From Escherichia coli (GTDB taxonomy: Bacteria; Pseudomonadota; Gammaproteobacteria; Enterobacterales; Enterobacteriaceae), in assembly GCF_001677475.2 (NCBI RefSeq), contig NZ_CP015229.1: 64,000 nucleotides of DNA; one strand, written 5' to 3'. Positions 47,053 through 64,000 of this stretch are shown here, one piece after another. Position 1 is the first letter of the stretch, and each line of letters begins with the position of its first letter. Below the pieces are notes generated by a model. It made no database searches. It saw only the letters and a program-made list of their open reading frames with translations, and was not told the origin of the DNA. The translations under genes and the position numbers were made by a program.

Positions 47053-47806
47053 TTGCCTGCGCGTTTAAGCCAGCCTCGTATCAGGGGGCTGGTTTAGGCG
47101 TTTTGAATCAACGGGTTCCATGGTGTTGTTCATTTAATCACTGTTTTAGTATCAATTTTCAATAGTATCCTTTCATAGGACTACTCTGGATGCGTTCACC
47201 TTCATTGTCGCTCTAAGCAACTAGATCCTCAGAAATCTCCAGTTAGGTTGCATCCTTCCTTACACACTTTCCTGAAACTTCAGGGTAAGGTGAGAAAGCC
47301 GCCATCACTTTTTCTTATTCCAGCATCTAAATAAATTCCGAATTTTGCTATTAATATCGCTACCGCAATAAAAACAGATAGTAAAGAGAGTAATATATAC
47401 TTTAGTGATATGTTAAGAATAATTGATTGTTAACATATCTAATGGGATAAGATGTGTTTCTGTTAATGAAAATATTCAAGATTTATAGTTGATAATTAAA
47501 ATACACTCGATATCTCAGCCCTTTCTATGCAAGATGCAATTTTATAAGCTGTCCATTTTTTATATGGAGGCGGTAGCGTGTTTGTTACTCGTGATTTTAT
47601 TGGTATGGTGAATATGTTGGGATTGTTAAATACATAACGGCATATCAGTTCCGGTCATTGTAAATATGGGTAATTGCTTAATGTTATTAGTGATTACCGT
47701 TTGAAAGATAAAGAGTGCTGTAAAGCGGTGATAGACATTACATTCATGATTAAAAAACAGAACCTGTCAATAAATAATTCATTTATTAAAAAGGACGACT
47801 TCTATT

Positions 47807-48036
47807 ATGACGGAATATTATCTCAATGAGACGGTTTGCAAATACAGAGCCAGTTTCTCCGGGGTAACGAGCAGGTGTACCAGTGTCAGGTGGCATTTGT
47901 ATTGCCGGGTGAGCGGGTCATGATGGCCTTCACCTACGCCCGAACCACACCGCTGACCCCGGCAGATATGACGCGCTGGGCTGAAATTAAAAAGAATCTG
48001 CGCTTCAGGATGCGGCAGGAAGCCGGGACGAATTAA
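47807..48036 (+). pseudogene. Eag-family (DUF1795) T6SS effector chaperone, internally deleted and frameshifted
   Basis: The ATG at 47807 encodes MTEYYLNE, a typical Eag N-terminus. It runs into another frame and stops after 38 codons. The C-terminal roughly 64 codons (QVYQCQVAFVLPGERVMMAFTYARTTPL...) are in a different frame (47836-48036). The total span of 230 bp compares with about 450 bp expected. Confidence 0.7.
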
Positions 48037-51000: not shown

Positions 51001-52737
51001 CGTGATGCGGCGGGCCGGCTCACGGCAAAGGAGACAGCCGATGGCCATACGGAATACGTCCATGATGCGGCAGACCAGCTACTGGAAATCCGCCGCCGAC
51101 GGTCGGATGCCGGGGAAACAGACGCACCGGAGATTATCCGTTTCAGTTACGACAGACTGGGGCGGATGCTGACCGAGGAGACGGCGCAGGGCGTCCTGAC
51201 CCATCAGTACGATGAACTCAGCAACCGGACAGCCACCACCTTTCCGGATGGCAGAACGCAGCGTCATCTGTACTACGGCAGCGGCCATCTCCAGCAGATA
51301 AATCTGGACCGGGAGGTCATCAGCGAGTTCACACGTGACGCCCTGCACCGGGAAGTGCTCAGAAGTCAGGGGCGACTGAGCACGCGGCAGCTTTATGACC
51401 CCGCCGGGCGGCTGAAGCGCAGGGAGACATACAGCGGGATGCGCGGGGTGGTACCGGAGACGTTCACGGACCGGCAGTACAGCTACAGCGGCGAGGATGA
51501 ATTGCTGAAGACGCGGCACAGCCGGCGGGGGGAAACGGATTACTTCTACGACCCCACGGGGCGCATCACGGCGTGCCGCTCGGAGGATGAGAGGTATCTG
51601 GCGAGCTGGCAGTACGACGCGGCGGGAAACCTGCTGGGGAGGCGCGCGGGGGAAAGGGCCACGGCAGAAAACAGCGTGGTGCCGTTCAACCGGCTGATGT
51701 CTTACCGTGGTGTGCACTACCGTTATGACGAATTTGGCCGGACGGTGGAAAAGGAGGGCCGGAGCGGCACGCAGAGTTACCGTTATGATGCGGAACACCG
51801 GATGGTGGAAGTGACGACAGCGCGGGGGACATACCGGTATGTGTACGATGCGCTGGGGAGGCGGACGGAAAAACAGCACATCAGCCCTGACGGTAAACCG
51901 TACAACCGGACGACATTTTTATGGGACGGAATGCGGCTGGCGCAGGAGAGCAGGCCGGAGGGAATAAGCAGCCTGTATATCTACAGCGACCCGGGGAGTT
52001 ATGAACCGCTGGCGCGGGTGGATAAGGCGGGCAAAGAGGGCCCGAACCGGATACTGTATTTTCACACGGATGTGAACGGTGCGCCGGAAGAGATGACGGA
52101 CAGTGACGGGAAAATCGTGTGGGAGACGGGGTATCAGGTCTGGGGTAACACGATACAGGAGAAGGACCACGGCGGGGTGGAGCAGAACCTGCGCTACCAG
52201 GGACAGTACCTCGACAGGGAAACGGGGCTGCATTACAATCTGCACAGGTACTATGATCCGGATGTCGGGCGGTTCATGGTAACGGACCCGATAGGGCTGG
52301 CGGGGGGACTGAATCTTTACCAATACTCACCGAATCCAATAAGTTGGATCGACCCGCTGGGATTAACAGGGGAGTGGGTTAATCCCAAAGATATTAATTT
52401 TTCTCAAAGAACAATATCACCTCATGATTATGCCGATATTATGCGTAATGGTGGTTGGGATTGGGACAGGTCTCCATTAAGAGTAATTGATATTGATGGG
52501 CAATTAGTTTCTTATGATAATAGGCGATTAGACGCAGCTCTAGAGGCCGGATTAGATAAGGTTAAAGTCATTAGAGTTGACCCTAATGCTCCTCATCCTG
52601 ACTCATCTACTGGAAAAACATGGTTACAAAAATTCCGAGAGAGATTTAGAGATCGAAGAAATATAAAGGCCGGTGGAATAGTACCAGATAAAGGATTAAA
52701 TTCTCGACCGGAAAGAACATCAAGAGGTTGCAAATGA
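48055..52737 (+). CDS. Full-length prePAAR/PAAR-Rhs (YD-repeat) polymorphic toxin with C-terminal ParB/Srx-like toxin tip
   Basis: 1560 aa. The AARQGDALLH prePAAR motif lies at 48073-48102. Two hydrophobic TM regions flank PAAR-like segments. A long GC-rich YD-repeat core follows. The core-end motif PNPISWIDPLGL has DPLGL at 52351-52365. An AT-rich 123-aa tip follows. Confidence 0.93.
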   Translation: MEEAFWAARQGDALLHTSFMADVLGAVVEVAATALVDVLVVGTMAALGGVEVATLGCSTILAIGIATAVFMSYQGWNDRISRESEQLANWLFPPQIEGYILTGSGDTWINSKPAARAAATAASRQDIEAQEAQAKAEQEEAQRQEDARTFLDVAGEYLEMAGAIALAVNPVTGPVLMSRALHDQLSTEEGRSEMVDGVTHFVSELWQPTVASAAPGSTPTPDDKIDCHKHPSSLTQFLAQKKAAFLDDPLGTALNLLSPGGMLETAFQGVNAVIGSISNLFKGDDEPPAAEYIAEGARDVRINSQPAARSGARCTCEARVVNEPGNGAFVSPDVRIGGPLLVVRDIRSGRSQITLVATVALMFLRPGKMLSKIACFAASVGMGVMTQKAISALPHPVNAATGAKYLADDDDFDFSLPGHFPLDWQRVYSSRDDRTEGMFGQGWSVMYEVSLERTPGTADENCMTFVSGMGRRLDMEAVLPGSGFYSPGEGLAVRRGEQGHWLISSDDGQFFLFEADPRHPQRQRLKMLGDRNSNCLNLYYDELGRITQISGEQQRPCIRLHYELAAHPRRVTQIYQHFPEMAPLLLRRYRYDEAGDLNGVYDSTGHLLREFAYDENHCMTLHRQPGGEGYYYQWGWYEGPDDAAWRVTGHHTDSGEQYRLAWSLAARRLCVTDGLGRTRYHQWDAQNQVTAYQDEAGQVTTFRWSDEERLLLGMTDAQGGKWRYVYDRQGHITETHDPLGRVAQTQWHPVWHQPETEVDAAGNSWCCEYDERGNLLAVTDPLQQNTRYQYDRHGQVVQITDARGGNKYLQWNEDGQLMRHTDCSGSQTAWFYDERTRLIRMTDAQSHSTRYGYDDSGHLTEVILADGRTVNYQSDAAGRLVKYTSPMGRITRWQRDGQGRVRSRTDATGRRTAFGYDAYGRLVTLTNENGESYRFRHDVLDRLAEQINPDGCRQTYRYNALNAVTEVVFTGDRGGEIRHRLARDAAGRLTAKETADGHTEYVHDAADQLLEIRRRRSDAGETDAPEIIRFSYDRLGRMLTEETAQGVLTHQYDELSNRTATTFPDGRTQRHLYYGSGHLQQINLDREVISEFTRDALHREVLRSQGRLSTRQLYDPAGRLKRRETYSGMRGVVPETFTDRQYSYSGEDELLKTRHSRRGETDYFYDPTGRITACRSEDERYLASWQYDAAGNLLGRRAGERATAENSVVPFNRLMSYRGVHYRYDEFGRTVEKEGRSGTQSYRYDAEHRMVEVTTARGTYRYVYDALGRRTEKQHISPDGKPYNRTTFLWDGMRLAQESRPEGISSLYIYSDPGSYEPLARVDKAGKEGPNRILYFHTDVNGAPEEMTDSDGKIVWETGYQVWGNTIQEKDHGGVEQNLRYQGQYLDRETGLHYNLHRYYDPDVGRFMVTDPIGLAGGLNLYQYSPNPISWIDPLGLTGEWVNPKDINFSQRTISPHDYADIMRNGGWDWDRSPLRVIDIDGQLVSYDNRRLDAALEAGLDKVKVIRVDPNAPHPDSSTGKTWLQKFRERFRDRRNIKAGGIVPDKGLNSRPERTSRGCK
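50912..52299 (+). repeat. 1388-bp direct repeat, copy A (rhs core 3' part)
   Basis: Aligns without indels to 60705-62092 at a constant offset of 9793 nt. Only four amino-acid differences separate the translated copies. Confidence 0.9.
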
Positions 52738-53168
52738 AAAATATTATTCAGTTATGGGAAGATGGTTTATTACCGATAAAAGATGCTATTTACTTTTCTA
52801 ACGGTGAATCTTTCCTTTGTAAAATAACATCTTACCCTACTCCTTGTATTGAGAAAAATGGTGAGTTTGATTTCTCTGCCTTTTATGAAAAAAATAAAGA
52901 TGAAGTTACTGATATTGATAAGTCTAGAGAAGTTAAATTAGCGAATAATTGCTATTGTTGCATTGGAGAAGGTAGTTATGGTTCTGAAGGATTTATCGCA
53001 TATCTCGATGAAAATAAAAACTTAGTTTGGGTTCTTTATTCCGAAGAATCTAATCCATTTATTAATATAACTGAATATACATCTGATATTATTATAGTAG
53101 AATCAAGTTCTAATATTAGACTAAGAATAAATATAAACAATCCAGTGGATTTAGAATTGGCATTTTAA
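52734..53168 (+). CDS. Cognate Rhs immunity protein (RhsI), family unknown
   Basis: 144 aa. Its ATG overlaps the rhs stop (ATGA at 52734-52737) and an SD aagagg lies upstream. AT-rich like the toxin tip. Confidence 0.75.
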   Translation: MKNIIQLWEDGLLPIKDAIYFSNGESFLCKITSYPTPCIEKNGEFDFSAFYEKNKDEVTDIDKSREVKLANNCYCCIGEGSYGSEGFIAYLDENKNLVWVLYSEESNPFINITEYTSDIIIVESSSNIRLRININNPVDLELAF

Positions 53169-53170
53169 AT

Positions 53171-53208
53171 AAAAAGCCGGGTGAAATTAAATCTTCCCGG
53201 CTTTTTTA
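53171..53208. terminator. Cassette hairpin H1 (bidirectional terminator shared by rhsI and the symE-like gene)
   Basis: aaaaaGCCGGGtgaaattaaatcttCCCGGCtttttt. Confidence 0.75.
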
Positions 53209-53212
53209 TTAT

Positions 53213-53542
53213 TTAACTCTCGTTCAGCACACTAAACATCCCGTTCCGCATCCCCTTAACCACCTGTTTAACCTGATAAAGTTCTTCCCGCAGCTCCTGC
53301 ACCTCGTCACTGTCAGCGATGATGGTCAGGTACCCCTCCGAAATCTTCACCGTGACACCCCGCCCGGTATCAAATCCCGCCTCAGCCAGCCAGTCGCCCT
53401 TGAGGTGCAGGCTGGGATGTTGTGAATAATACCGGGCTATACCTGTTGTGCGGTCCTGGTGGCGGGTTCTGACATAGCCGACTTTATAGCGGCGCTGGGT
53501 TTTGGAAATGGTGACTTCTGGCGTAATATCGTGTTCAGCCAT
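53213..53542 (-). CDS. SymE-family (AbrB/SpoVT-fold, type I toxin-like) protein, intact copy
   Basis: 109 aa. The segment HLKGDWLAEAGFDTGRGVTVKISEGYLTII aligns with remembered K-12 SymE [32 protein letters not shown]. An SD aggag lies 7 nt before the ATG. Confidence 0.75.
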   Translation of the reverse strand: MAEHDITPEVTISKTQRRYKVGYVRTRHQDRTTGIARYYSQHPSLHLKGDWLAEAGFDTGRGVTVKISEGYLTIIADSDEVQELREELYQVKQVVKGMRNGMFSVLNES

Positions 53543-53616
53543 GATTAACTACTCCTGTTAGTTGCTTGTGGTGAGCGGCTGTTACAGGCGGCAACCTGTA
53601 GCAGTCGCGTTAAATA

Positions 53617-53760
53617 TCAACGCATTACCTTCATTACCTGCTTCATCTTCTCCTGGGTGATCGCCATATCCAGAATACGGCAGATCACTTCCTGATCGTC
53701 TGCTTTAAGCTCATCAACCTGCTTACACAGTTCTTTTAACCGCTTGTTTTTTATATCGAA
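53617..53760 (-). pseudogene. 3' fragment of an unknown gene upstream of symE-like copy 1, apparently cut by the GC-rich fragment
   Basis: The minus frame reads ..DIKNKRLKELCKQVDELKADDQEVICRILDMAITQEKMKQVMKVMR* (stop at 53617-53619). There is no start codon. AT-rich sequence ends abruptly at about 53760. Confidence 0.3.
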
Positions 53761-54861
53761 AACATCGCGGAAGAAGAAGGTGTGCGCCAGGCGGCCTACG
53801 CGCTCAAGCTGTTGCAGTCGGACGGGGAACTGACCATCGCCAGTACGGGCAAGGATGACGCCAGCGGTAACCTGGTCACCAAACAGTATACGGTGAAAGG
53901 CCCGGTGATGCTGATGCTGACCACCACCGCCATCGATGTTGACGAGGAGTTACTCAACCGCTGTCTGGTGCTGACGGTGAACGAATCGCGGGAACAGACG
54001 GAAGCTATCCACGCGGCGCAGCGTTACGCGCAGACGCTGGAAGGACTGCTGGCGGCTAACGAAAAAAGTTACATCACGCAGCTTCACCAGAACGCGCAGC
54101 GGCTGCTGCGCCCGCTCAACGTGGTGAACCCGTTCGCCTCGCAGCTCACGTTCATGAGCGACAAAACCCGCACCCGGCGCGACCACATGAAATACCTGAC
54201 GCTGATCCAGGCGATCGCCCTGCTGCACCAGTACCAGCGGGAGATCAAGCGCGTGGAGCATCGCGGGCAGGTGGTGGAGTACATCGAGGTCACGCGGGAG
54301 GACATCGCCCTGGCGAACCGCCTGGCACATGAAATACTCGGGCGCACCCTGGATGAAATGCCGCCGCAGACGCGCAAACTGTTAACCCTGATCCAGCAAT
54401 GGGTGAGCGACAGCGGTCAGGCGCGTGAGGCGATGCGGTTCACCCGTAAACAACTGCGTGACGCGGTACAGTGGGGCGACACGCAGCTCAAGATCCACCT
54501 GGCGCGGCTGGTCGAAATGGAATATCTGCTGGTCCACCGTCTCGGGCTGACGTTCTGCTATGAACTGCTGTTCGACGGGGACGGCAGCGCAGACACCGCG
54601 CACCTGTGCGGGCTGATCGACGTACCGGAACCACCGTATGACGTCGCCCGGTCGGGGGAAACGGTGAAGCAGCTGGCCTCTGGTCGGGCAGTGGTCGGCG
54701 GTCAGTCGGGTAAGGAAAAAACCGCCTCAGACCAGACACCACGAGGCTTACAGGCCGGAGCGGTCGGGGCAGAGGAAAAAGCCCTGTTCCGGCAGAACGC
54801 AAAAAAACCGTCCCGCAATCATACTGCGGCCCGTCCGGGCCGGAGCAACACGGAAGCATAA
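53761..54861 (+). pseudogene. 5'-truncated gene of a GC-rich mobile element (large conserved protein, function not assignable here)
   Basis: The ORF reading ..IAEEEGVRQAAYALKLLQSDGELTIASTGKD... has no plausible native start. Composition changes sharply at about 53760. It is followed by a tyrosine recombinase gene. Confidence 0.55.
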
Positions 54862-54895
54862 GTACGACTTCATCCGGTCGGGGCAACGGCTGCAA

Positions 54896-54939
54896 TAGTC
54901 GGCCCCTGGTCGGCAGTCAGTCGGCGGGTAGTCGGGGTG
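54896..54939. repeat. Four tandem 11-bp iteron-like repeats containing GTCGG
   Basis: tagtcggcccc / tggtcggcagt / cagtcggcggg / tagtcggggtg. A fifth GTCGG lies at 54877-54881. The repeats lie between the truncated gene and the recombinase gene. Confidence 0.7.
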
Positions 54940-55065
54940 CGTAAAACCCCCGCAGGCCGCGCCCGGCAAGGTTCAGGCCATGAAGCGGTCGGCCTGCCTG
55001 AAAATCACTGTTCCATCCTCTGTTCTTCTCTCTGTCGTACCGTAATCTCAATCAGGACAATCATC

Positions 55066-56095
55066 ATGACAAAACCCATCCCTCCGGGGCCGGAGGAACT
55101 TTACCTCAGCCGCCAGAACCTGACGCAGCGCCAGTATGTGGTGGTGTGGCTGGAATACCTGACGGCACAGAACTACAGCGCGATCAGCGTAAGCGACTAT
55201 CGCGAACGGGTGTTACCGTTCGTGACATGGTGTGAGGAGCGCGGGCTGATGTACGCGCCGCAGGTCAGCCAGCCGCAGCTTGAAAGCTATCAGCGCCACC
55301 TTCACGGCTACCGTAAGGCGGACGGCCATCCGCTGGCGGTCAGCGGTCAGGTGGGCCGGATAAGCGCGATAAAAATCTTTTACCGCTGGCTGCTGAAGCG
55401 GCATGTGATCCTGTACAACCCCGCCGATCTGCTGGAACTGCCAAAGCCGGACAAACGGCTTCCGGCGCAGGTGTTCAGTAAGGGCGAGACGCGGCAGGTG
55501 TTACAGAGCCTTGATATCAACACGCCCGTTGGCCTGCGCAACCGGACAATCCTTGAGGTGCTGTGGAGTACCGGGATCAGGCGGATGGAGCTGGCCAGCC
55601 TGATGTTGTGGGATGTTGACACCGGGCGCGGTGTGGTTAACGTGCGGCAGGGTAAGGGGCGTAAGGATCGGGTGGTTCCGGTGGGCCATGTGGCGCTGGG
55701 ATGGCTGGCAAGACGTGCGACCACAGATGACGCGCCAGCGCGACAGTGGTCATCTGTTCGTGACGAAATACGGCAGCGGGATGAAACGCAACACGCTGAC
55801 GGCGATGGCAGGCACCGCGATCCGGGAAACGGCACGGATCGACAAACCGGGCGCGTGCCATATCTTCCGGCACTCGATGGCGACGCAGATGCTGGACAAT
55901 GGCGCAGACACGCGGCATATCCAGGCGATCCTCGGCCATGAGAAGCTGGAGACGACGCAGATCTACACGAAGGTGGCCATAAAGCCGTTGCAGAAGGTTC
56001 ATGCGCGGACGCACCCGGCAGAGAAGCGGCGAAGGGAAAAGCGCGTGCAGCAGCCGGACGAGGCCACCGTATCGCCGGACAGCCTGAAAAGTTAG
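55066..56095 (+). pseudogene. Tyrosine recombinase (XerC/D-like integrase), frameshifted
   Basis: MTKPIPPG...TGIRRMELASL...[12 protein letters not shown] is in one frame. After about 55710 the homology continues in the +1 frame ([36 protein letters not shown]). The catalytic Arg is therefore separated from the HxxR and Tyr residues. Confidence 0.8.
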
Positions 56096-56260
56096 GTGGC
56101 GATCCCTGTAAGGCCGTGGGGTGCGGTGCAGGGCAGACAACCGCCTTCCCTGGCGGTTGACTGCCCCCTGCCAGCGGCGTGCGCGGGGGTAAATGCCGTC
56201 CGCCCCGTGGAGGCAGCCGCGCCCCATGCGACCATGCAGCACGGGGCAAACGTCATTCAA

Positions 56261-56352
56261 CATAATGCGGATTATGCGCACTCTCGCCGGTCGGCAATGA
56301 CGGCGAACCCGATCCGCTGTGCGCGGCTCGTGTTCGCACAATCCGCATTATG
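56261..56352. repeat. Imperfect 20-bp inverted repeat with a 52-bp spacer
   Basis: cataatgcggattatgcgca (56261-56280) against the reverse complement of ttcgcacaatccgcattatg (56333-56352). 18/20 positions match, including 13 contiguous. Confidence 0.7.
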
Positions 56353-57005
56353 TCTGACGCCCCCGCGTTCAGCCCCGTGGTCCGTGCAGCGCAAAGCTTC
56401 GCTGGCGCTCCGCTCTGCTGCCGGGTGCGGTGTTCTTCTGTGGCCCCGCAGTCGCCGCCATCCCTGGCGGCTCCGGTGCCGTTCTGCGGCAGCGTCATCG
56501 TGTGGCAGTCAGTCAGAAAAGGGTGTCGGCCTGGCGGCCTCCGCTTGTAAGGGCTTTATGCCCGCCCGGCGTCGTCTGGCTGCGGCGGCTCGTGCCGCGC
56601 AAAAAGGCCGCGCGTCACTCGTTCCCGCCTCGCCAGCTTCCGCTGCCCGCCCCGGTCAGGTGTGGTCATGCAAAGGCAACCCCCGGTCAGGCAGCGGTGC
56701 CACAGAGCGCCGTTCCGTCGCTTGCGGACTCTCTGCCGCCCGCACCCGCAGACCCCGCGCCGTGGCCCCGCCATGCCGCCGGAGGCGTCCTGGCGGCCCC
56801 CCGTCACGGGGTGCCGGAAACGGACTTAGTGGAAAGCGGAATGACAGGCGGTGGTGGTGGTGCTATGGTGAGCGGGCGTGAAAATGCGCGTCGGGAAAGT
56901 CGGGTTAACGTGCTGTTAAATAAGTAAAAGGTGATAGCCGGGAAGCCAGAAACGGCGCGGGCGGTAGCGTGTTAAAAAGTGTGACCTGCACCGGATCGTT
57001 CCGAT

Positions 57006-57515
57006 GACCCGATAGGACTGCGGGGTGGATTAAATCTCTATCAATATGCGCCGAATCCGTTGAGCTATATTGATCCTCTTGGCCTTTGTAAATTAAGGGG
57101 AAGTAATGGGCGCTTCAGAAGTGCTCAGAATATTCAGGAAGAAATAGGCGGACTACCTAATTTTTCAGGGAAGACTCCAGGGCAAATACGACAAACTTTG
57201 CGTAATCGAGTTTATTCGTCGGTACAAGCGCATAGTGGTGGAGAGGTCTGGACAAAAGCATTACCTGACGGAAATACTGTTGCTGTGAGAATTGACCCGG
57301 CAAATCCTCGCTCACCTTCACATTATGCTGATGCTGTGCCTCATGCTCATATTGAAACAGTTCCAACGTCCAGTGTTTCTAATGGGAATTATCGCCCACG
57401 AGACGTGACTGGCAGGCATACTGCCACTGGTGGGATTTCTGACCGAGGAACGAATCCGAATCATAATGCTGATGTTCACATTCCAATGTCTCCGGGACGA
57501 TTCCCATATAATTAA
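57006..57515 (+). CDS. Orphan Rhs C-terminal toxin 1 (core stub + CT domain of unknown family); no own start codon
   Basis: [27 protein letters not shown] is followed by a 143-aa AT-rich CT. The frame opens just after a TGA, with only an internal TTG at 57060. Confidence 0.75.
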   Translation, partial: DPIGLRGGLNLYQYAPNPLSYIDPLGLCKLRGSNGRFRSAQNIQEEIGGLPNFSGKTPGQIRQTLRNRVYSSVQAHSGGEVWTKALPDGNTVAVRIDPANPRSPSHYADAVPHAHIETVPTSSVSNGNYRPRDVTGRHTATGGISDRGTNPNHNADVHIPMSPGRFPYN

Positions 57516-57526
57516 TGTGAGGTTTT

Positions 57527-57790
57527 ATGAATATCCGAAATCAATATAATGAAGCCTTAAATAAATTAGAAGTTGATGTTAATGATGGTTTAAGAGATTT
57601 AATAAACATATATTGTGTAGCTATTGATTCTTTTGAAAATGATATCGTTGACTCGATTGCTTTATACGTGATTGATATGGGAAATAAAGATACTTGTCGA
57701 TATCTACAAGAAATATTATCAGAGAATGAAGATCCTTATTTAGTAAAAGAATTTAATGCATGGATGAAAGAAATTAAGAAAAAATATTAA
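57527..57790 (+). CDS. Orphan immunity protein 1
   Basis: 87 aa. It begins 11 nt after the toxin stop with an SD gagg. AT-rich. Confidence 0.7.
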   Translation: MNIRNQYNEALNKLEVDVNDGLRDLINIYCVAIDSFENDIVDSIALYVIDMGNKDTCRYLQEILSENEDPYLVKEFNAWMKEIKKKY

Positions 57791-57793
57791 AAT

Positions 57794-57831
57794 AAAAGCC
57801 GGGACGGTTATTAAATCTTCCCGGCTTTTTT
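57794..57831. terminator. Cassette hairpin H2
   Basis: aaaaGCCGGGacggttattaaatcttCCCGGCtttttt. Confidence 0.75.
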
Positions 57832-57836
57832 ATTAC

Positions 57837-58070
57837 TTAACTTTCGTTCAGCACACTAAACATCCCGTCACGCATTCCCTTAACCGCCTGTTTAACCAGA
57901 TAAAGTTCCCTGCGCAGTTCCTGTACTTCGTTGTTATCCGCAAGCAGGATCAGACATCCTTCCGAGATCTTCACGGTGACGCCCGTGCCGATCTCAAATC
58001 CCGCTTCTCTCAGCCATTTTGCGCTGATTTTGATTACCGGCGTGTCGCTGCGGTTGGGCAGATAACCCAC
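57837..58070 (-). CDS. SymE-family ORF, copy 2, lacking a canonical start upstream of the conserved N-terminal segment
   Basis: 77 aa from an in-frame GTG. The frame stays open upstream to 58154 and encodes the conserved ISKTQRHCTVGY segment, but contains no ATG/GTG/TTG or SD there. Confidence 0.5.
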   Translation of the reverse strand: MGYLPNRSDTPVIKISAKWLREAGFEIGTGVTVKISEGCLILLADNNEVQELRRELYLVKQAVKGMRDGMFSVLNES

Positions 58071-58376
58071 GGTACAGTGGCGCTGTGTTTTGGAAATGAT
58101 ATTCTTATATTTAATCTGCTGATTAGATAGTAAAATTAACTTCGTGCAGATAGCTTACTTTATCAGGGTGCGGCGGTAGTGTATGAACTATGACGTGATG
58201 GTTTTAGTGATTTATATACGAAAATGACAGTACGATCCGGACTTCGAATAGATTGCGCGATTTGACCCGATAGGGCTGGCGGGGGGATTAAATCTCTATC
58301 AATATGCGCCTAATCCGTTAAGTTATATTGATCCACTTGGATTGTGTCCTAAAACTGACTTTAAATGGGGAAATCC

Positions 58377-59667
58377 CAGGGAAAGATCACGTAATGCTGC
58401 TTTTTTGTACTAAACAATTCGCATTTTATGTTTAAAAATTGAGATATTCCTCATTACATAAAGCTGTTTTTTATTGCTTATACATGATCAAATACTCCTT
58501 ACATAATTAAGGAGAACAAAATGGAACTTAAAAAATTGATGGAACATATTTCTATTATCCCCGATTACAGACAAGCCTGGAAAGTGGAACATAAATTATC
58601 GGATATTCTACTGTTGACTATTTGTGCCGTTATTTCGGGTGCAGAAGGCTGGGAAGATATAGAGGATTTTGGGGAAACACATCTCGATTTTTTGAAGCAA
58701 TATGGTGATTTTGATAATGGTATTCCTGTTCACGATACCATTGCCAGAGTTGTATCCTGTATCAGTCCTGCAAAATTTCACGAGTGCTTTATTAACTGGA
58801 TGCGTGACTGCCATTCTTCAGATGATAAAGACGTCATCGCAATTGATGGAAAAACGCTCCGGCATTCTTATGACAAGAGTCGCCGCAGGGGAGCGATTCA
58901 TGTCATTAGTGCGTTCTCAACAATGCACAGTCTGGTCATCGGACAGATCAGGACGGATGAGAAATCAAATGAAATTACAGCTATCCCTGAACTTCTTAAC
59001 ATGCTGGATATTAAAGGAAAAATCATCACAACTGATGCGATGGGTTGCCAGAAAGATATTGCAGAGAAGATACAAAAACAGGGAGGTGATTATTTATTCG
59101 CTGTAAAAGGAAACCAGGGGCGGCTAAATAAAGCCTTTGAGGAAAAATTCCCACTGAAAGAATTAAATAATCCAGAGCATGACAGTTACGCAATTAGTGA
59201 AAAGAGTCACGGCAGAGAAGAAATCCGTCTTCACATTGTTTGCGATGTCCCTGATGAACTTATTGATTTCACGTTTGAATGGAAAGGACTGAAGAAATTA
59301 TGCGTGGCAGTCTCCTTTCGGTCAATAATAGCAGAACAAAAGAAAGAGCCAGAAATGACGGTCAGATATTATATCAGTTCTGCTGATTTAACCGCAGAGA
59401 AGTTCGCCACAGCAATCCGAAACCACTGGCACGTGGAGAATAAGCTGCACTGGCGTCTGGACGTGGTAATGAATGAAGACGACTGCAAAATAAGAAGAGG
59501 AAACGCCGCAGAATTATTTTCAGGGATACGGCACATCGCTATTAATATTTTAACGAATGATAAGGTATTCAAGGCAGGGTTAAGACGTAAGATGCGAAAA
59601 GCAGCCATGGACAGAAACTATCTCGCGTCAGTCCTTGCGGGGAGCGGGCTTTCGTAATCTTGCCCTG
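58377..59667 (+). mobile_element. ISAs1-family element (Rhs-associated H-repeat), 1291 bp
   Basis: Terminal IRs are CAGGGAAAGATCACGTAA and TTACGAAAGCCC..(rc CAGGGCAAGATTACGAAA). A perfect 10-bp target duplication GGGGAAATCC lies at 58367-58376 and 59668-59677. Confidence 0.9.
58521..59657 (+). CDS. ISAs1-family (H-repeat-associated) transposase
   Basis: 378 aa, starting [51 protein letters not shown]. Matches remembered YbfL/YhhI-type proteins. Confidence 0.92.
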
Positions 59668-60010
59668 GGGGAAATCCAAAAAGTAAGCCTACATACGGTC
59701 ACACATTTTCTGAACACGGACAGAAAATGAAACCAAGTCAGTTAATTGATCGTGCCAGAAATAAAGGTCATCAAGTAGGACAATATCTCGATGATAATTC
59801 TGCTGCTGATTTTATTGCTTCTGTTGCCAAAAAAGGTCCGGGTGTGCATGATGTGCCATTGCCTACAAATATAAAAGGTCGAGGTTATTTGCCTGATGGG
59901 ACAGAGGTCGTTCCAGATATGGCAAGGGTTGTTGTAAAACCCGATGGTTCTGTACGAACATCGTTCCCATTCAATTCATCACACACCAACTAAAGTAATG
60001 AAGGGTATAT

Positions 60011-60391
60011 ATGAATGAAATAGATAAGATCTGTAGTGAACTTGGCGTACCAGTTGGTGATAAGTTTACACAAGATTGGGCTTATGAACTGCCTGAAAAA
60101 TATCGAACTAAAGAGTGGCTAAGTAAATACATTGCTGCATACTTAAACAATGGCTACTCCCAAAAAGGGAAGACTGAATTAATGACTTTAGCCCTTGATG
60201 TCTGTAATGATTTATTATCTTCTGGAGTACCCCCATCAGATGAGGTTATTATAAAAGTACTCAACGCCCTGCGTGATAATTACAAAAATCATATAGATCT
60301 TATTAATTATTGGTCCTTGGATGATGAATCTTTAGATGACAGTTTTGCATTAACTCCTGAAATAAGGGAGCTAAAAAGAAGATTGATTTAG
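60011..60391 (+). CDS. Orphan immunity protein 2
   Basis: 126 aa. It begins 17 nt after the toxin-2 stop with an SD aaggg. Confidence 0.7.
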   Translation: MNEIDKICSELGVPVGDKFTQDWAYELPEKYRTKEWLSKYIAAYLNNGYSQKGKTELMTLALDVCNDLLSSGVPPSDEVIIKVLNALRDNYKNHIDLINYWSLDDESLDDSFALTPEIRELKRRLI

Positions 60392-60413
60392 GATTATAAT
60401 ATTATTAAGTTAT

Positions 60414-60447
60414 AAAAAGCCGGGAATATAATCTTCCCGGCTTTTTT
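60414..60447. terminator. Cassette hairpin H3
   Basis: aaaaaGCCGGGaatataatcttCCCGGCtttttt. Confidence 0.75.
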
Positions 60448-60452
60448 ATTAT

Positions 60453-60677
60453 TTAACTCTCGTTCAGCACACTAAACATCCCGTCACGCATCCCCTTAAC
60501 CGCCTGTTTAACCTGATAAAGTTCCCTGCGCAGTTCCTGTACTTCGTTGTTATCCGCGAGCAGGATCAGGCAACCTTCCGAGATCTTCACGGTAACGCCC
60601 GTACCGATCTCAAATCCCGCTTCTCTCAGCCATTTGGCGCTGATTTTGATCACCGGCGTGTCGCTGCGGTTGGGCAG
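60453..60677 (-). pseudogene. SymE-family gene, copy 3, 5'-truncated at the junction with an rhs core fragment
   Basis: Identical to copy 2 apart from one residue, back to ..LPNRSDTP. Homology stops at about 60677, where rhs-core-like sequence begins. Confidence 0.75.
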
Positions 60678-60704
60678 ATGCTGCGCTGGCAGCACGACGG
60701 CAGA

Positions 60705-62518
60705 GCCAGACGTACCGTTACAACGCGCTGAACGCGGTCACGGAAGTGGTGTTCACCGGGGACCGGGGCGGTGAAATCCGCCACCGGCTGGCACGTGATG
60801 CGGCGGGCCGGCTCACGGCAAAGGAGACAGCCGATAGCCGAACGGAATACGTCCATGATGCGGCAGACCAGCTACTGGAAATCCGCCGCCGACGGTCGGA
60901 TGCCGGGGAAATGGACGCACCGGAGATTATCCGTTTCAGTTACGACAGACTGGGGCGGATGCTGACTGAGGAGACGGCGCAGGGCGTCCTGACCCATCAG
61001 TACGATGAACTCAGCAACCGGACAGCCACCACCTTTCCGGACGGCAGAACGCAGCGTCATCTGTACTACGGCAGCGGCCATCTCCAGCAGATAAATCTGG
61101 ACCGGGAGGTCATCAGCGAGTTCACACGTGACGCCCTGCACCGGGAAGTGCTCAGAAGTCAGGGGCGACTGAGCACGCGGCAGCTTTATGACCCCGCCGG
61201 GCGGCTGAAGCGCAGGGAGACATACAGCGGGATGCGCGGGGTGGTACCGGAGACGTTCACGGACCGGCAGTACAGCTACAGCGGCGAGGATGAACTGCTG
61301 AAGACGCGGCACAGCCGGCGGGGGGAAACGGATTACTTCTACGACCCCACGGGGCGCATCACGGCGTGCCGCTCGGAGGATGAGGGGTATCTGGCGAGCT
61401 GGCAGTACGACGCGGCGGGAAACCTGCTGGGGAGGCGCGCGGGGGAAAGGGCCACGGCAGAAAACAGCGTGGTGCCGTTCAACCGGCTGATGTCTTACCG
61501 TGGTGTGCACTACCGTTATGACGAATTTGGCCGGACGGTGGAAAAGGAGGGCCGGAGCGGCACGCAGAGTTACCGTTATGATGCGGAACACCGGATGGTG
61601 GAAGTGACGACAGCGCGGGGGACATACCGGTATGTGTACGATGCGCTGGGGAGGCGGACGGAAAAACAGCACATCAGCCCTGACGGTAAAGCGTACAACC
61701 GGACGACATTTTTATGGGACGGAATGCGGCTGGCGCAGGAGAGCAGGCCGGAGGGAATAAGTAGCCTGTATATCTACAGCGACCCGGGGAGTTATGAACC
61801 GCTGGCGCGGGTGGATAAGGCGGGCAAAGAGGGCCCGAACCGGATACTGTATTTTCACACGGATGTGAACGGTGCGCCGGAAGAGATGACGGACAGTGAC
61901 GGGAAAATCGTGTGGGAGACGGGGTATCAGGTCTGGGGTAACACGATACAGGAGAAGGACCACGGCGGGGTGGAGCAGAACCTGCGCTACCAGGGACAGT
62001 ACCTCGACAGGGAAACGGGGCTGCACTACAATCTGCACAGGTACTATGATCCGGATGTCGGGCGGTTCATGGTAACGGACCCGATAGGGCTGAGAGGCGG
62101 ATTAAACTTATACCAATACGCGCCTAATCCGTTAAGCTGGATCGATCCTCTTGGATTAAGTGCCGCCTCTGATTTACCTCAATTAAAAGGAAGATCCCCA
62201 GGGGCAATAGGTTCTATTCTTACTGATAATGGATTCAATTTAGATAAACAAACAAGTACCGGGAATCAGACTTGGAGCCACGCCGATGGTTCTAAAGTTC
62301 GTGTCGATCCCTATGGAAACCAAAGTATGACTATGAAAAACGGTGATCCATTACCGAAATCAGGAGCTAACGCACATGTGCATAAATATGATCCCGGTGA
62401 GATACCGCTGAATGACAGAGGCATTCCGAGTACAAATCCAAATGAAACACATATAGGGATCAGGAATCCAAATGATTATTCTACAAAACGAGGGCGGGCC
62501 CATGGGTGCGGCGTATAA
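60705..62518 (+). CDS. Orphan Rhs fragment 3: 1.39-kb core 3' segment (direct repeat copy B, 60705-62092) plus a distinct CT toxin
   Basis: The translation is near-identical to main Rhs residues from QTYRYNALNAVTEVVFT to VTDPIGL. It then diverges: [22 protein letters not shown] followed by a 119-aa CT from 62159. The 5' side (60678-60704) is a scrambled YD fragment in another frame. The only start is an internal GTG at 60746. Confidence 0.85.
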
Positions 62519-62530
62519 GGTAAGAAATTA

Positions 62531-62815
62531 ATGAGTGTTGAATATGTTATACATGTCGATGATAAAGTAGATAATTTACTTTCTTTTATTGTCGAGAGAA
62601 TAAAGGAAAATCAACCATCCTCTCGAATTAATACTGACGGTTCACTTTGGATTCCATCTAGCTATTCAAATTGGATTGATTTTTCAATAGAAGACCATGA
62701 GGATGGTTTTTTTATTGTAAATAATTTAAATGGAAGTGATAGAGATAAATTATTTTCACTGATATTTACTGCCTTTCATGAATTATCTATAAAATATGAA
62801 ATAGAAGAAGTCTAA
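62531..62815 (+). CDS. Orphan immunity protein 3
   Basis: 94 aa. It begins 12 nt after the toxin-3 stop with an SD aagg. Confidence 0.7.
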   Translation: MSVEYVIHVDDKVDNLLSFIVERIKENQPSSRINTDGSLWIPSSYSNWIDFSIEDHEDGFFIVNNLNGSDRDKLFSLIFTAFHELSIKYEIEEV

Positions 62816-62817
62816 TG

Positions 62818-62897
62818 AAAGCCGGGTTTTTGGACTGACCCCATAAAGTTGGACACCCAACTGATTAAGGTGCAGTCCAACATATTCCCGGCTTTTT
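62818..62897. terminator. Cassette hairpin H4, with its loop expanded by a 49-bp insertion
   Basis: aaaGCCGGGtttt[49 bp]acatattCCCGGCttttt. Confidence 0.6.
62831..62879. mobile_element. Miniature IS150-group/IS1397-like element (49 bp)
   Basis: TGGACTGACCCCATAAAGTTGGACACCCAACTGATTAAGGTGCAGTCCA has termini TGGACTG / CAGTCCA. It aligns with the first roughly 50 nt of the IS at 1044-1094 (TGAACTGCACCCCAAATGTTGGACA...GAAGGTGCAGTT). Confidence 0.6.
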
Positions 62898-62902
62898 ATT
62901 AT

Positions 62903-63136
62903 TTAACTCTCGTTCAGTACACTAAATATCCCGTCACGCATACCCTTAACCACCTGTTTAACCTGATAAAGTTCCCTGCGCAGTTCCTGTACTTCGTTGT
63001 TATCTGCAAGCAGGATCTGGCAGCCTTCCGAGATCTTCACGGTAACGCCCGTGCCGATCTCAAATCCCGCTTCTCTCAGCCATTTTGCGCTGATTTTGAT
63101 TACCGGCGTGTCGCTGCGGTTGGGCAGATAACCCAC
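62903..63136 (-). CDS. SymE-family ORF, copy 4, lacking a canonical start upstream of the conserved N-terminal segment
   Basis: 77 aa, differing from copy 2 at 4 residues. The upstream conserved but start-less segment is the same as in copy 2. Confidence 0.5.
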   Translation of the reverse strand: MGYLPNRSDTPVIKISAKWLREAGFEIGTGVTVKISEGCQILLADNNEVQELRRELYQVKQVVKGMRDGIFSVLNES

Positions 63137-63329
63137 GGTACAGTGGCGCTGTGTTTTGGAAATGATATTTTTGTATTTAACCTGCTGATTAGATAGTAAA
63201 ATAAACTTCGTGCAGATAGCTTACTTTATCAGGGTGTGGCGGTAGCGTATGAACTATGATGCGGTGGTTTCAGGAATGTACGTACAAAATCGATAGTACG
63301 ATCCTCCAATCAGGTAGATTTGCTGCCCT

Positions 63330-63734
63330 GATCCGATAGGGCTAAGAGGCGGGCTGAACCTGTATGCTTATGCGCCTAATCCGCTGAAATATATTGATCC
63401 ACTCGGATTAAAAAAAGAGCTCTGTAATGGAACTACTCGTGTGCGGCATTATACTAATCGTAAAGGTTCAAATGCGATTGCTGAAAGTGGGATAATTAAG
63501 GCGCATGATAACGGTCGTGTATATTTGGAACCTGCGAATAAAAAACCACTCAGTCAAGTAGACATAGAGGCGAAATATCAAATAGGTCGTGGGAAAGGTA
63601 GAGATTATGTGGATACAGATGTATCTAACGAGCAATTAGAGTGGGTAACAAACCCTCGATATCATATAGATGAATTGACTGTGAAAGGTGATATTATTCT
63701 TTCTGAAAATGCAAAAATAACTCGGCGTAAATAA
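63330..63734 (+). CDS. Orphan Rhs C-terminal toxin 4 (possible HYD1-type ADP-ribosyltransferase); no own start codon
   Basis: DPIGLRGGLNLYAYAPNPLKYIDPLGL is followed by KKELCNGTTRVRHYTNRKGSNAIAESGII.... The frame opens after the TAG at 63315-63317. Confidence 0.7.
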   Translation, partial: DPIGLRGGLNLYAYAPNPLKYIDPLGLKKELCNGTTRVRHYTNRKGSNAIAESGIIKAHDNGRVYLEPANKKPLSQVDIEAKYQIGRGKGRDYVDTDVSNEQLEWVTNPRYHIDELTVKGDIILSENAKITRRK

Positions 63735-63735
63735 T

Positions 63736-64000
63736 ATGAATAAAAACAATGATGTAATTAATATACCCGGAAAGGATGCCCTTTATATTCTAAGTGAGGT
63801 AGAGTACATATTGATATCACTTAAGAATATTGCAAGGTATTATTTCAATGGTATAGAACAGAACGTTATTGATGATAAATTGTTGAATTCTTACTTTAAA
63901 GAAACCACTAAATTTATTGATGATAAAAATATTACACATCGATTGGCTGAAATAAGAAGGGTTATTACTGAAAATTTTAATACTGATCTTGGAGATGATG
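63736..64000 (+). CDS. Orphan immunity protein 4 (3' end outside window)
   Basis: The ATG at 63736 lies 1 nt after the toxin-4 stop. The frame is open to the window edge (MNKNNDVINIPGKDALYILSEVEY...). Confidence 0.6.
   Translation, partial: MNKNNDVINIPGKDALYILSEVEYILISLKNIARYYFNGIEQNVIDDKLLNSYFKETTKFIDDKNITHRLAEIRRVITENFNTDLGDD

Follow-up and report, generated by a model that had tools for sequence, protein, structure and literature searches.

Why does a SymE-like gene stand convergent to each toxin/immunity cassette of an orphan rhs array? We addressed this question in a 64,000-nt stretch of Escherichia coli DNA (contig NZ_CP015229.1), hereafter the window. A first-pass annotation had described the array as one module repeated five times, with one symE per module. 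Its observations were confirmed in part and its interpretation was supported in part. A tyrosine-recombinase/primase element that it overlooked accounts best for the one-symE-per-cassette pattern, which is best read as the footprint of serial insertions.

The repeat unit was confirmed (Table 1): a DPxGL stub leads into an AT-rich toxin tip with its coupled immunity gene, and these are followed by a GCCGGG/CCCGGC terminator and, in convergent orientation, a gene of the SymE_toxin family (PF08845). The orphan toxin/immunity array was borne out by five DPxGL-type core ends or stubs (stub length 71–85 nt, identity 67–87%), by toxin tips and immunity genes with 27–45% GC against 58–66% in the core, and by immunity ORFs coupled through an ATGA overlap in cassette 1 and gaps of 2–17 nt elsewhere. 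Immunity gene 1 had no family match in profile searches, and the cassette 5 toxin belongs to ART-HYD1 (PF15633, E = 2e-14). The array hairpins H1–H3 each carry an A-run and a T-run, and on either strand their folds score z = −4.4 to −5.8, whereas the loop of H4 holds a nested palindrome of about 60 nt. The GCCGGG-loop-CCCGGC pattern occurs four times in the window versus 0.1 expected; one match, at 49491, is unrelated to the array.

The repetition proved less regular than described. A decayed integrative element of 3.4 kb comes after symE copy 1, an insertion sequence interrupts cassette 3, and module 5 extends past the window edge, which leaves only four symE copies in view. The leader into the next stub, given as roughly 190 bp, is present (approximately 165–190 bp) after copies 2 and 4 only; after copy 3 the 1.39-kb core piece cuts in directly. 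The final ~45 nt of leader 1 are a decayed rhs-core remnant ('RK*QYDPDFE*IARF'). There was no statistical support for core-remnant status beyond these ~45 nt or for homology between the leader and the element right end, and comparison detected no conserved RNA structure in the leader.

Table 1. Features of the rhs array and the decayed element in the window
Feature	Position	Strand	Evidence and details
Main rhs gene, 1560 aa	48055–52737	+	ORF; PAAR_motif PF05488; YD core
Main rhs core end (DPIGL at 52285)	52285–52737	+	Conserved stub 52285–52368; toxin tip CT1 52369–52737
Immunity gene 1	52728–53168	+	ATG 52734 overlaps rhs stop (ATGA 52734–52737)
H1 bidirectional intrinsic terminator	53171–53206		Stem 53176–53201; pattern match and fold
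symE copy 1, 109 aa	53213–53542	−	PF08845, E = 6e-20
SymR-like antisense RNA, two hairpins	53537–53611	+	Rfam RF01809, fold, covariation
cHTH (Xre-type) regulator remnant	53620–53763	−	C-terminal 48 aa; tblastn
DnaG-type primase/P-loop gene remnant	53764–54645	+	C-terminal part; tblastn, 97% identity
Xer-like tyrosine recombinase gene, frameshifted	55066–56092	+	Two tblastn pieces in different frames
Element right end	56413–57005	+	Hypothetical-gene remnants, then decayed rhs-core remnant
Cassette 2	57006–57790	+	Stub 57006–57089; CT2 to 57515; immunity 57527–57790
H2 terminator stem-loop	57798–57825		Pattern match and fold
symE copy 2	57837–58097	−	Pfam SymE_toxin; alignment to intact alleles
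Leader 1	58098–58263		73–96% conserved in at least 8 genera
Cassette 3	58264–60391	+	Stub 58264–58347; CT3 interrupted by ISAs1/ISEc1 transposase gene 58521–59657; CT3 3' part 59727–59993; immunity 60011–60391
H3 terminator stem-loop	60419–60441		Pattern match and fold
symE copy 3	60453–60704	−	5'-truncated at ~residue 23 by rhs core fragment
Cassette 4	60705–62815	+	Core fragment 60705–62077 (aa 954–1403), 98% identical to 50912–52284; stub 62078–62161; CT4 to 62518; immunity 62531–62815
H4 hairpin	62822–62893		GCCGGG/CCCGGC arms, nested palindrome in loop
symE copy 4	62903–63163	−	Start-less, as copy 2
Leader 2	63164–63329		87% identical to leader 1
Cassette 5	63330–64000	+	Stub 63330–63413; toxin to 63734; immunity gene from 63737, continues beyond window

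SymE of E. coli K-12 is an AbrB-fold protein that binds DNA non-specifically and condenses the nucleoid. Profile searches bore out the suspected homology, with all four convergent ORFs matching Pfam SymE_toxin above the cut-off (E = 6e-20 to 9e-10). Copy 1 is the sole complete SymE-family ORF in the window; in copies 2–4 the start codon, the ribosome-binding site and SymR are all missing. Homology of copies 2 and 4 to intact alleles ends upstream of 'ISKTQR', where no ATG, GTG or TTG was found, and from this motif onward copy 2 is 98% identical to an intact 97-aa allele. No LexA box was found near any of the window's symE copies.

The antisense RNA partner expected from K-12 is present at copy 1 as a covariation-supported SymR-like RNA, which overlaps the symE start by 6 nt with the same geometry as in K-12. 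It scored 39 bits with RF01809 (below the Rfam gathering score of 61), folds with z = −5.0 and retains 94% pairing, with compensatory changes at 13 of 28 pairs. No shuffle equalled it (0/500), slid controls gave 28–55%, and invariant G-U pairs tie the fold to the antisense strand. The Rfam isrA model also matched this strand (107.5 bits, above its gathering score of 51). In the homologous region of Salmonella Typhimurium, the antisense RNA IsrA is expressed inversely to the symE-like STM0294.1n, a gene just past the rhs region that was given as without clear function (Padalon-Brauch et al. 2008, PMC2330248).

The decayed element occupies positions 53620–57005, between symE copy 1 and cassette 2. 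Its cHTH remnant is 100% identical to residues 85–132 of the EC554 HTH protein (tblastn) and is joined to the primase gene through a deletion, while its right end closes with an rhs-core remnant ('AVAC*KV*PAPDRSD') that adjoins stub 2. In the presumed newest unit (52285–57005), symE and SymR are whole and the cHTH, primase and recombinase genes are wrecked; copy 1 has also lost whatever promoter drove the cHTH-symE operon. In the three units taken to be older, all that is left of symE is a body without a start or cut short.

Intact units in E. coli D6 and EC554 have the order stub, toxin, immunity, symE, cHTH, primase, xerC and right arm. In D6 they stand in tandem with a period of 8,833 bp, and the same gene order recurs in E. 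ruysiae, C. sedlakii, Erwinia tracheiphila and Scandinavium. Their proteins comprise an Xre-type HTH protein, a Zn-ribbon/Toprim primase that also has a P-loop, and a Phage_integrase assigned to the Xer subfamily (NCBIfam PRK01287, 528 bits). The cHTH gene lies directly upstream of symE on the same strand, probably in one operon with it, and the SymR-like RNA is also present. The element was found in 61 of 5,426 complete E. coli genomes, always on the chromosome, with a median of 4 and up to 6 copies per carrier genome, and it ended at an RHS annotation in almost all of the matches listed.

Comparison of empty and occupied alleles located the insertion point to the base. At the ybfA-ybgA locus, EC554 differs from GF50 by a 6,665-bp insert between 71-nt direct repeats whose first base coincides with that of GAYCCGATAGG (DPIGL); attB and the attR stub match at 100% identity, while element-type SNPs appear in the attL stub from its third base. 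The junction between JNE151685 and D6, at another locus and with another displaced toxin, fell on the same base, and the 3.1 kb downstream were 99.9% identical. At both junctions the homology block ends no more than 2 nt away, which leaves no homologous partner for RecA on the left. The codons CCG-ATA-GGG, rare ATA included, were fixed at 98%, 90% and 93% in 57 cores, versus only 40–60% for other conserved Gly, Pro and Ile codons of the same rhs genes.

We read the array as the 3' side of a T6SS PAAR-Rhs locus at the ybfA-ybgA site on which successive toxin tips have been stacked, and consider it somewhat more probable than its competitors together that the array is debris of a small rhs-targeting mobile element that delivers toxin tips, with symE as the element's own module. 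The mobile unit would run from the DPxGL stub through tip, immunity gene, bidirectional terminator, symE with its SymR-like RNA, cHTH repressor, primase and recombinase to a right arm that is a short, itself decayed, rhs-core remnant. Insertion into a resident rhs gene, presumably through the element-encoded recombinase, would occur at the 5' boundary of the sequence that encodes DPxGL, so that the incoming stub and tip fuse in frame with the resident core and the previous tip is displaced downstream, behind the right arm. Later deletion would remove the replication and integration genes and leave toxin, immunity gene, terminator and a symE remnant. Through serial insertion and later loss of the mobility genes, one symE would tend to follow each cassette. 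RecA-dependent events or whole-array transfer could lead to the same end products.

A survey of 45 contigs from about 20 named enterobacterial genera revealed that the symE-rhs linkage is no quirk of this strain: 65 of 67 informative symE copies converge on an rhs core end, with a median separation of 841 nt. Many copies (48/73) are 5'-truncated at many different points, as expected for relics. The strict rule of one symE per cassette holds in the window, but overall 59 of 83 cassettes carry symE, and among cassettes beyond the one bringing each locus in, about one-third have it and two-thirds do not. Several observations weigh against an element. Some cassettes, the main tip of D6 among them, lack symE. 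At about 40 of 51 loci neither a recombinase nor a primase gene was found nearby, so that for most surveyed arrays we infer relic status. Toxin swaps also break at a second motif, WIDPLGL, which means that other recombination routes work on these arrays as well. Start-less symE copies have a pN/pS of 0.18 and form no clade separate from intact alleles, pointing to purifying selection or gene conversion rather than free decay.

Some of this fits a less likely account, in which the stub on the left and terminator-symE-leader on the right serve as portable RecA substrates for cassette swap, deletion and duplication within and between genomes, with symE DNA kept as an arm and no site-specific step. 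The homology-arm idea of the first-pass annotation gains some support from the mixing of start-less and intact bodies in the symE phylogeny, from the greater likeness of copies within one genome (pS 0.07–0.08 versus 0.15–0.2 between genomes) and from toxin-exchange breakpoints at the edges of conserved motifs. In addition, the terminator-symE-leader-stub block is 73–96% conserved across genera with wholly different toxins, and experiments in Salmonella have demonstrated RecA-type recombination of main with orphan rhs (PMC3967940). Against it stand the two mapped junctions, the shortness and divergence of the stubs, the varied symE truncation points and the many additional cassettes without symE; the linked recombinase, primase and cHTH genes are left unexplained.

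Conservation of the start-less copies and leader, with their low pN/pS, could alternatively reflect a SymR/IsrA-type antisense promoter in the 5' part of the symE remnant, from which transcription would run through the leader into the stub, toxin and, most importantly, immunity gene of the next cassette. The −35-like hexamer TTGGAA from the SymR-like promoter region is still present in copies 2 and 4, and Salmonella IsrA, at 423 nt and cis-antisense over the 5' end of the symE-like gene, extends well past the overlap (PMC2330248). We consider this improbable: no promoter in the remnant region passed a consensus scan, the −10 element is weak (TAATCT), the leader lacks conserved structure, and the codon-position pattern of conservation is unexpected for a promoter.

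That each symE is an active type I toxin which, once its antitoxin is lost, kills cells that delete the neighbouring silent cassette, an addiction role also proposed at first pass, is very unlikely, because copies 2–4 are start-less or truncated and without SymR. SymE-family proteins are toxic when overexpressed in K-12 (PMC1891008; PMC11894785), and copy 1 has an intact ORF with a SymR-like RNA; yet even copy 1 lacks its upstream cHTH gene and promoter, most surveyed copies are truncated, and no copy has a LexA box nearby. Least probable is tandem duplication of one ancestral rhs-immunity pair with a passively carried symE and no role for symE or an element, which would suit the many genera with a single symE right after the main rhs immunity gene and the terminal copies adjoining chromosomal flanks at three E. 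coli rhs loci, but not the unrelated toxins within one array, the cHTH-symE operon and replication and integration genes of intact units, or the compensatory changes maintaining the SymR-like RNA.

Copy 1 shares with K-12 symE/symR (PMC1891008; Thompson et al. 2022, as outlined in PMC11894785) the PF08845 family and a 75–77-nt two-hairpin antisense RNA with a 6-nt overlap at the start codon. It differs in being only 34% identical to K-12 SymE, under the NCBIfam equivalog cut-off, in having no LexA box and in lying in an rhs array instead of the hsd/mcr region; intact relatives have a cHTH gene directly upstream, and copies 2–4 are not genes of the K-12 kind. Some genomic islands integrate in the 3' end of a gene, classically a tRNA gene, and restore it with their own copy. 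The proposed element resembles them in the tyrosine recombinase gene near one end, the direct repeat of the target 3' part flanking the insert, the tandem arrays at one site and the empty and occupied alleles. Here, by contrast, the target is a protein-coding toxin gene, the recombinase is Xer-like, and the 'restored' 3' end encodes a different toxin domain and immunity gene, so that insertion alters target function.

Published Rhs orphan arrays, formed by C-terminal displacement (Poole et al. 2011, PMC3150448; Koskiniemi et al. 2014, PMC3967940), likewise have a main rhs gene followed by displaced rhs-CT/immunity pairs retaining a core piece, and a toxin that is orphaned in one strain may form the main tip of another. 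Their published mechanism is homologous recombination across hundreds of bp of shared core, whereas here the right arm of an element encoding a recombinase precedes many stubs, which are only ~85 nt long and begin precisely with DPxGL. Bacteroidales rAID-1 arrays (Ross et al., bioRxiv 10.1101/471110) also link an Xer-family tyrosine recombinase to T6SS immunity genes of skewed GC, with repeated intergenic sequences that suggest active acquisition. They belong to another phylum, and a single recombinase heads a co-oriented, immunity-only array with no symE, primase or tip fusion to a delivery gene, whereas each unit of the element proposed here would bring its own recombinase. In cdiA/hecA orphan arrays (PMC11278526, PMC8386352, PMC11566119), symE faces orphan toxin/immunity pairs in convergent orientation, at times accompanied by a cro/cI-type HTH gene; by published description, the target family is different and the pretoxin motif is VENN.

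The earlier statement that no SymE-Rhs link was described was too strong. SymE neighbourhoods with RHS/haemagglutinin, cHTH and primase-helicase genes were drawn in 2007 (Kawano et al., PMC1891008, Fig. 7A legend), several genome papers mention symE within rhs, cdiA or hecA arrays (PMC7764402, PMC11278526, PMC8386352, PMC3942780), and PGAP already names symE genes of this kind; a functional link is not known to have been described. Most simply, symE would serve the element as a module for maintenance (addiction) or regulation, restrained by the SymR-like RNA and probably also by the cHTH repressor, and would not be a partner of the Rhs toxins. An element plugging new tips into an rhs gene would explain how toxin/immunity stacks arise.

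The window carries kdpA, ybfA and a PAAR-Rhs gene (1560 aa), corresponding to the ybfA-ybgA rhs site of Escherichia. The kdp flank showed 97.8% identity to the nearest genome among 5,426 complete E. coli, which makes the source an E. coli-like, under-sampled lineage. Five DPxGL core ends or stubs (short conserved rhs pieces starting at DPxGL) were found, each followed by an AT-rich tip, the toxin part, and then by a closely coupled small ORF. This is the layout of an Rhs orphan toxin/immunity array, in which a full-length rhs ending in PxxxxDPxGL precedes rhs-CT/immunity pairs that retain core sequence. The repeating module described in the first-pass annotation was real in its core, comprising DPxGL ends, AT-rich tips, coupled ORFs, SymE ORFs and hairpins, with these corrections: only four symE copies accompany the five DPxGL ends, module 5 being cut by the window end; cassette 3 (stub, tip and immunity gene) is split by ISEc1, and symE copy 3 is cut by a 1.4-kb rhs core piece; and a leader running into the next stub follows copies 2 and 4 and is absent elsewhere. 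Coordinates are listed in the table.

At 11-12 nt from symE stop codons lie three GCCGGG-loop-CCCGGC hairpins with flanking A and T runs, against a chance expectation of only 0.1 matches per window; their folds gave z = -4.4 to -5.8 on either strand. The loop of a fourth hairpin (H4) holds a nested palindrome of ~60 nt. This insert is strongly self-pairing (whole hairpin -40.8 kcal/mol, z = -7.9) and may be a tiny palindromic mobile insert. A promoter and terminator scan gave counts not above those of shuffles, and among the terminators it detected only H3 because it restricts loop length. The DcrB-related gene directly 5' of the main rhs is a single 151-aa ORF in E. coli EC554; in the window, an in-frame stop breaks it into two ORFs (51 and 66 aa), which may leave the main Rhs without its accessory protein.

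Coordinates of features in the window and in related E. coli and Limnobaculum loci
Feature	Position	Strand	Description
DcrB-related gene	47674-48036	+	split by in-frame stop
Main PAAR-Rhs gene	48055-52737		1560 aa
DPxGL core ends/stubs	52285, 57006, 58264, 62078, 63330		n = 5
Conserved DPxGL-coding site	52285-52299		GAYCCGATAGGGCT; all stubs
symE copy 1	53213-53542	-	intact
symE copy 2	57837-58097	-	start-less
symE copy 3	60453-60704	-	truncated
symE copy 4	62903-63163	-	start-less
H4 loop insert	62828-62887		nested palindrome
Rfam symR match	53537-53611	+	at symE1 start
SymR-like RNA	53536-53610		weak PtaRNA1 match (RF01811, 27 bits)
Hairpin then TTTTGAT	58010-58027, 60626-60643, 63076-63093	+	within symE copies 2-4
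Ssr1 (RF02627) matches	57760-58100, 60062-60707, 62668-63166, 53105-53512		DNA homology only
Xre-type HTH gene remnant	upstream of symE1		last 48 codons
DnaG-type primase remnant	deletion at 53763/53764		C-terminal third; fused to HTH remnant by the deletion
Xer-like tyrosine recombinase gene	between symE1 and stub 2		frameshifted
Hypothetical gene	upstream of symE1		fragments
Core remnant type 1	beside xerC		AVAC*KV*PAPDRSD
Core remnant type 2	in leader		RK*QYDPDFE*IARF
D6 main tip region	L061 3042-8539		no symE before next cassette
EC554 ydcC-pptA rhs locus	L058 1-10600		prophage tail region and DUF262 gene
E. coli IH5 match	NZ_CP168949.1 4977567-4978834		beside annotated MobH relaxase gene
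Limnobaculum SymE homologues	L037 9456-10267, L039 9971-12284		outside rhs arrays

The SymE-family assignment was borne out by profile search, all four ORFs scoring above the gathering cut-off (29) of Pfam PF08845 SymE_toxin, copy 1 with 71.5 bits and copies 2-4 with 39-44 bits. With the NCBIfam equivalog NF010128 (SymE proper), the scores of 42.6 and 44.5 bits fell short of the 132-bit cut-off, and copy 1 showed 34% identity to K-12 SymE; together, these values place copy 1 in a paralogous SymE subfamily. Intact E. coli symE alleles encode 97 or 109 aa, both beginning MAEHDITPEVTISKTQR, and copy 1 is the sole window copy of this kind, having a start codon, a ribosome-binding site and an intact toxin ORF. 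From ISKTQR onward, copies 2 and 4 share 95-98% identity with the 97-aa allele; the motif is preceded by unrelated sequence whose frame is open and has no ATG, GTG or TTG; their counterparts in several other genera are likewise start-less upstream of ISKTQR. The pN/pS was 0.18 for start-less symE bodies and 0.07 for intact ones. Start-less bodies formed no separate clade, and copies within a genome were more alike than copies from different genomes, a pattern pointing to gene conversion, selection, or both. No LexA box (CTGT-N8-ACAG, at most one mismatch), as SOS control would entail, was found in 53.1-53.8, 58.0-58.3, 60.6-60.8 or 63.1-63.4 kb.

The AbrB-fold assignment of SymE is taken from PMC1891008 and PMC11894785. 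In hhalign, SymE residues 37-75 aligned to E. coli MazE 7-45 in the right register with a probability of only 6%, the MazE sequence used being approximate. A PDB sequence search with the SymE family profile gave no match at E <= 10, and the AlphaFold2 monomer of copy 1 (16-sequence alignment) had a pLDDT of 55.8, too poor for a fold search. As summarized in PMC11894785, citing Thompson et al. 2022, SymE is now seen as a non-specific DNA-binding, nucleoid-condensing protein and not as an RNase.

Copy 1 is also the only copy showing a type I arrangement, with a putative cis antisense sRNA over its 5' UTR and start codon; a SymR-like RNA is absent from copies 2-4. The Rfam symR match at copy 1 scored 39 bits, short of the gathering score (61), with E = 2e-4 over 18 kb, and covers 6 nt of the symE1 start, an overlap identical to that in K-12. 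Alignment of the SymR-like region of 12 rhs-linked loci with K-12 symR revealed a two-hairpin fold with 94% pairing and compensatory changes at 13 of 28 pairs; none of 500 shuffles was as good, and slid controls reached 28-55% pairing. Four G-U pairs, invariant or almost so, would turn into A-C mismatches if read from the symE strand, which assigns the fold to the antisense RNA. The antisense strand of symE1 also matched Rfam isrA above the gathering score; Salmonella IsrA is cis-antisense to STM0294.1n, with expression inverse to it (PMC2330248). The SymR-like RNA additionally gave a weak match to PtaRNA1, another antisense antitoxin family. Weak isrA matches overlap a small conserved hairpin followed by TTTTGAT on the antisense strand within copies 2-4; this hairpin may serve to terminate or process an antisense RNA. 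Matches to Ssr1 were rejected as sRNA evidence: they trace to Shigella rhs-yafV intergenic DNA (PMC4782007), the model covers that entire 654-nt region including an unannotated symE remnant, the Ssr1 RNA itself is ~150 nt, and its mapped 5' end lies in a 354-nt part missing from the window.

The module list of the first-pass annotation was incomplete, having missed four element remnants directly upstream of symE1, in a stretch of 60-70% GC. E. coli EC554 and D6, which carry intact element copies, hold full or almost full versions of these genes, the EC554 primase gene being frameshifted; a whole cHTH gene is present in EC554, D6, E. ruysiae, Erwinia and Scandinavium. An Xre/Cro-type HTH gene directly preceding symE on its strand defines the cHTH-SymE operon class (Kawano 2007); the window retains just the final 48 codons of such a gene. 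In EC554 and D6, the order is stub, toxin, immunity, symE and cHTH, then divergently primase, xerC, hypothetical gene, right arm and next stub, with D6 holding two tandem units (8,833 bp). Of the 5,426 complete E. coli genomes, 61 contain the element; their median copy number is 4, every copy is on the chromosome, and among the matches listed almost all copies end at an RHS annotation. Its xerC lies ~1 kb from the right junction and stub repeats of 71-85 nt flank the insert, as in tyrosine-recombinase integrative elements. Integron integrase models scored 124.6 bits against a cut-off of 265, and the leader lacks the secondary structure expected of attC-like sites between cassettes, setting the element apart from integron/rAID-like arrays; the rAID-1 array of Bacteroidales (bioRxiv 10.1101/471110) is the nearest analogue.

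Several individual loci showed further features. In D6, no symE separates the main rhs tip and its Imm8-family immunity gene from the next orphan cassette, which lies no more than 74 nt away, implying that this tip was gained or trimmed by another route. At the EC554 ydcC-pptA rhs locus, the xerC end of an element copy borders on a prophage tail region and a DUF262 gene, and loss or rearrangement of the main rhs seems to have occurred there. The IH5 match, with 98% identity to the 3' part of the recombinase region, hints at a link of that region to a conjugative element.

At each of two loci, an occupied allele was matched with an empty one; the members of each pair are distinguished by precisely the element, and the junction is fixed. 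The empty-site strain GF50 has the order rhs (toxin B), immunity B, symE and ybgA, and in EC554 toxin B is displaced behind a 6,665-bp unit. The first base of GATCCGATAGG is precisely where homology to the empty site picks up again; in EC554, the stub on the right is 100% identical to the empty-site stub, and the one on the left carries element SNPs from its third base. Between the empty-site strain JNE151685 and D6 (locus vgrG to pptA, another displaced toxin), the junction falls at the same base, and the downstream 3.1 kb are 99.9% identical. RecA would not readily place a crossover at most 2 nt from the edge of a 71-nt block of ~85% identity, and from this precision we infer a site-specific step. 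No empty-site partner was found for the window's own insertion, cassette 2 having turned up solely at the yafV locus, where it is a terminal orphan.

Every such stub has a decayed rhs-core remnant on its left, of one of two conserved types. At the proposed insertion site, the codons CCG-ATA-GGG were fixed in 98%, 90% and 93% of 57 rhs cores, the rare ATA included, compared with 40-60% for other conserved Gly/Pro/Ile codons. The synonymous sites of the DPxGL-coding stretch listed in the table, with its rare ATA Ile codon, are conserved at all window stubs and in many genera (loci L003-L053), and conserved codons next to it vary freely. This codon fixation hints at a DNA-level constraint.

To assess the generality of the symE-rhs linkage, we surveyed one genome per species by pattern search, which yielded 51 loci on 45 contigs from ~20 named enterobacterial genera; the patterns were drawn from the rhs-linked clade, and the results are silent on K-12-type SymE. 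The linkage of symE-like genes to Rhs held, with a convergent rhs core end within 3 kb (median 841 nt) for 65 of 67 informative copies. The two long exceptions, both from Limnobaculum, are more distant SymE homologues: one is preceded by a ParD-type RHH antitoxin gene, with a C5 DNA methylase gene close by, and the other lies near a short tyrosine recombinase (integrase) gene. The strict rule of one symE per cassette applied in the window but not overall, symE being present in only 59 of 83 cassettes, or about one third once each locus's index cassette was excluded. The association is strong, and the 1:1 rule is local to the window. Truncation at the 5' end affected 48 of 73 surveyed copies, at many different residues, with rhs fragments of many lengths abutting the truncated copies.

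The one-per-cassette pattern is best read as the probable footprint of serial insertions by a tip-delivering integrative element, whose own module would consist of symE, SymR and cHTH. Each insertion would arm the resident Rhs with the element's tip and archive the old tip and its immunity gene downstream. More broadly, we tentatively consider, with our judgement still leaning against it, a family of small integrative elements that each encode a Xer-like recombinase, a primase and a cHTH-SymE-SymR switch and would use the near-invariant rhs DPxGL-coding GAYCCGATAGGG as attachment site and serve as the vehicle of Rhs C-terminal displacement; start-less symE with its leader would be non-autonomous and movable in trans, and related symE-bearing elements may act likewise at cdiA/hecA.

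Homologous exchange over conserved flanks is a second, non-exclusive process. Three pairs of toxins with 94-99% identity have stubs only 77-80% alike, their identity beginning at the second motif, WIDPLGL; this rejects the idea that a stub always moves with its own toxin and indicates that homologous or microhomology-based exchange also acts on arrays. Addiction by each cassette's symE, one of the possibilities raised in the first-pass annotation, is unlikely given the start-less and truncated copies.

The leader (~165-190 bp between symE copies 2 or 4 and the next stub) is 73-96% conserved in at least 8 genera and showed no conserved secondary structure (covariation term -0.72, 1 compensatory pair). 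Local and global alignments to core sequence, as a long decayed remnant, and to the element's right end, as a homologue, were no better than shuffles, and both origins were rejected. The last ~45 nt have a collinear GTAC..GATCCGGA at the same offset, suggestive of a core remnant, and a GGCGGTAGCGT motif common to the leader and the element right end is suggestive, without statistical support.

Kawano et al. 2007 (PMC1891008) recorded cHTH, primase-helicase and 'haemagglutinin and RHS' genes around SymE, and symE in rhs, cdiA or hecA arrays has been mentioned without explanation (PMC7764402, PMC3942780, PMC11278526, PMC8386352, PMC11566119). A literature search, with most subscription journals outside its reach, found no description of an rhs-targeting recombinase/primase element.

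How Rhs/CdiA loci acquire new tips and build orphan arrays has been a question since C-terminal displacement was described. To our knowledge, the sole demonstrated route to new tips is homologous recombination between existing copies. If the proposal is true, a DPxGL-targeting element with a toxin, an immunity gene and its own recombinase would provide a concrete mechanism for tip acquisition, directly testable in the sequenced E. coli strains that carry intact copies. As a practical warning, it would mean that the majority of 'SymE family type I toxin' annotations within rhs arrays are relics. The proposal, if correct, would also explain the recurrence of SymE-family genes and the sRNA IsrA beside polymorphic toxin genes, and would shift SymE from an 'orphan SOS toxin' to a 'module of a mobile element'.
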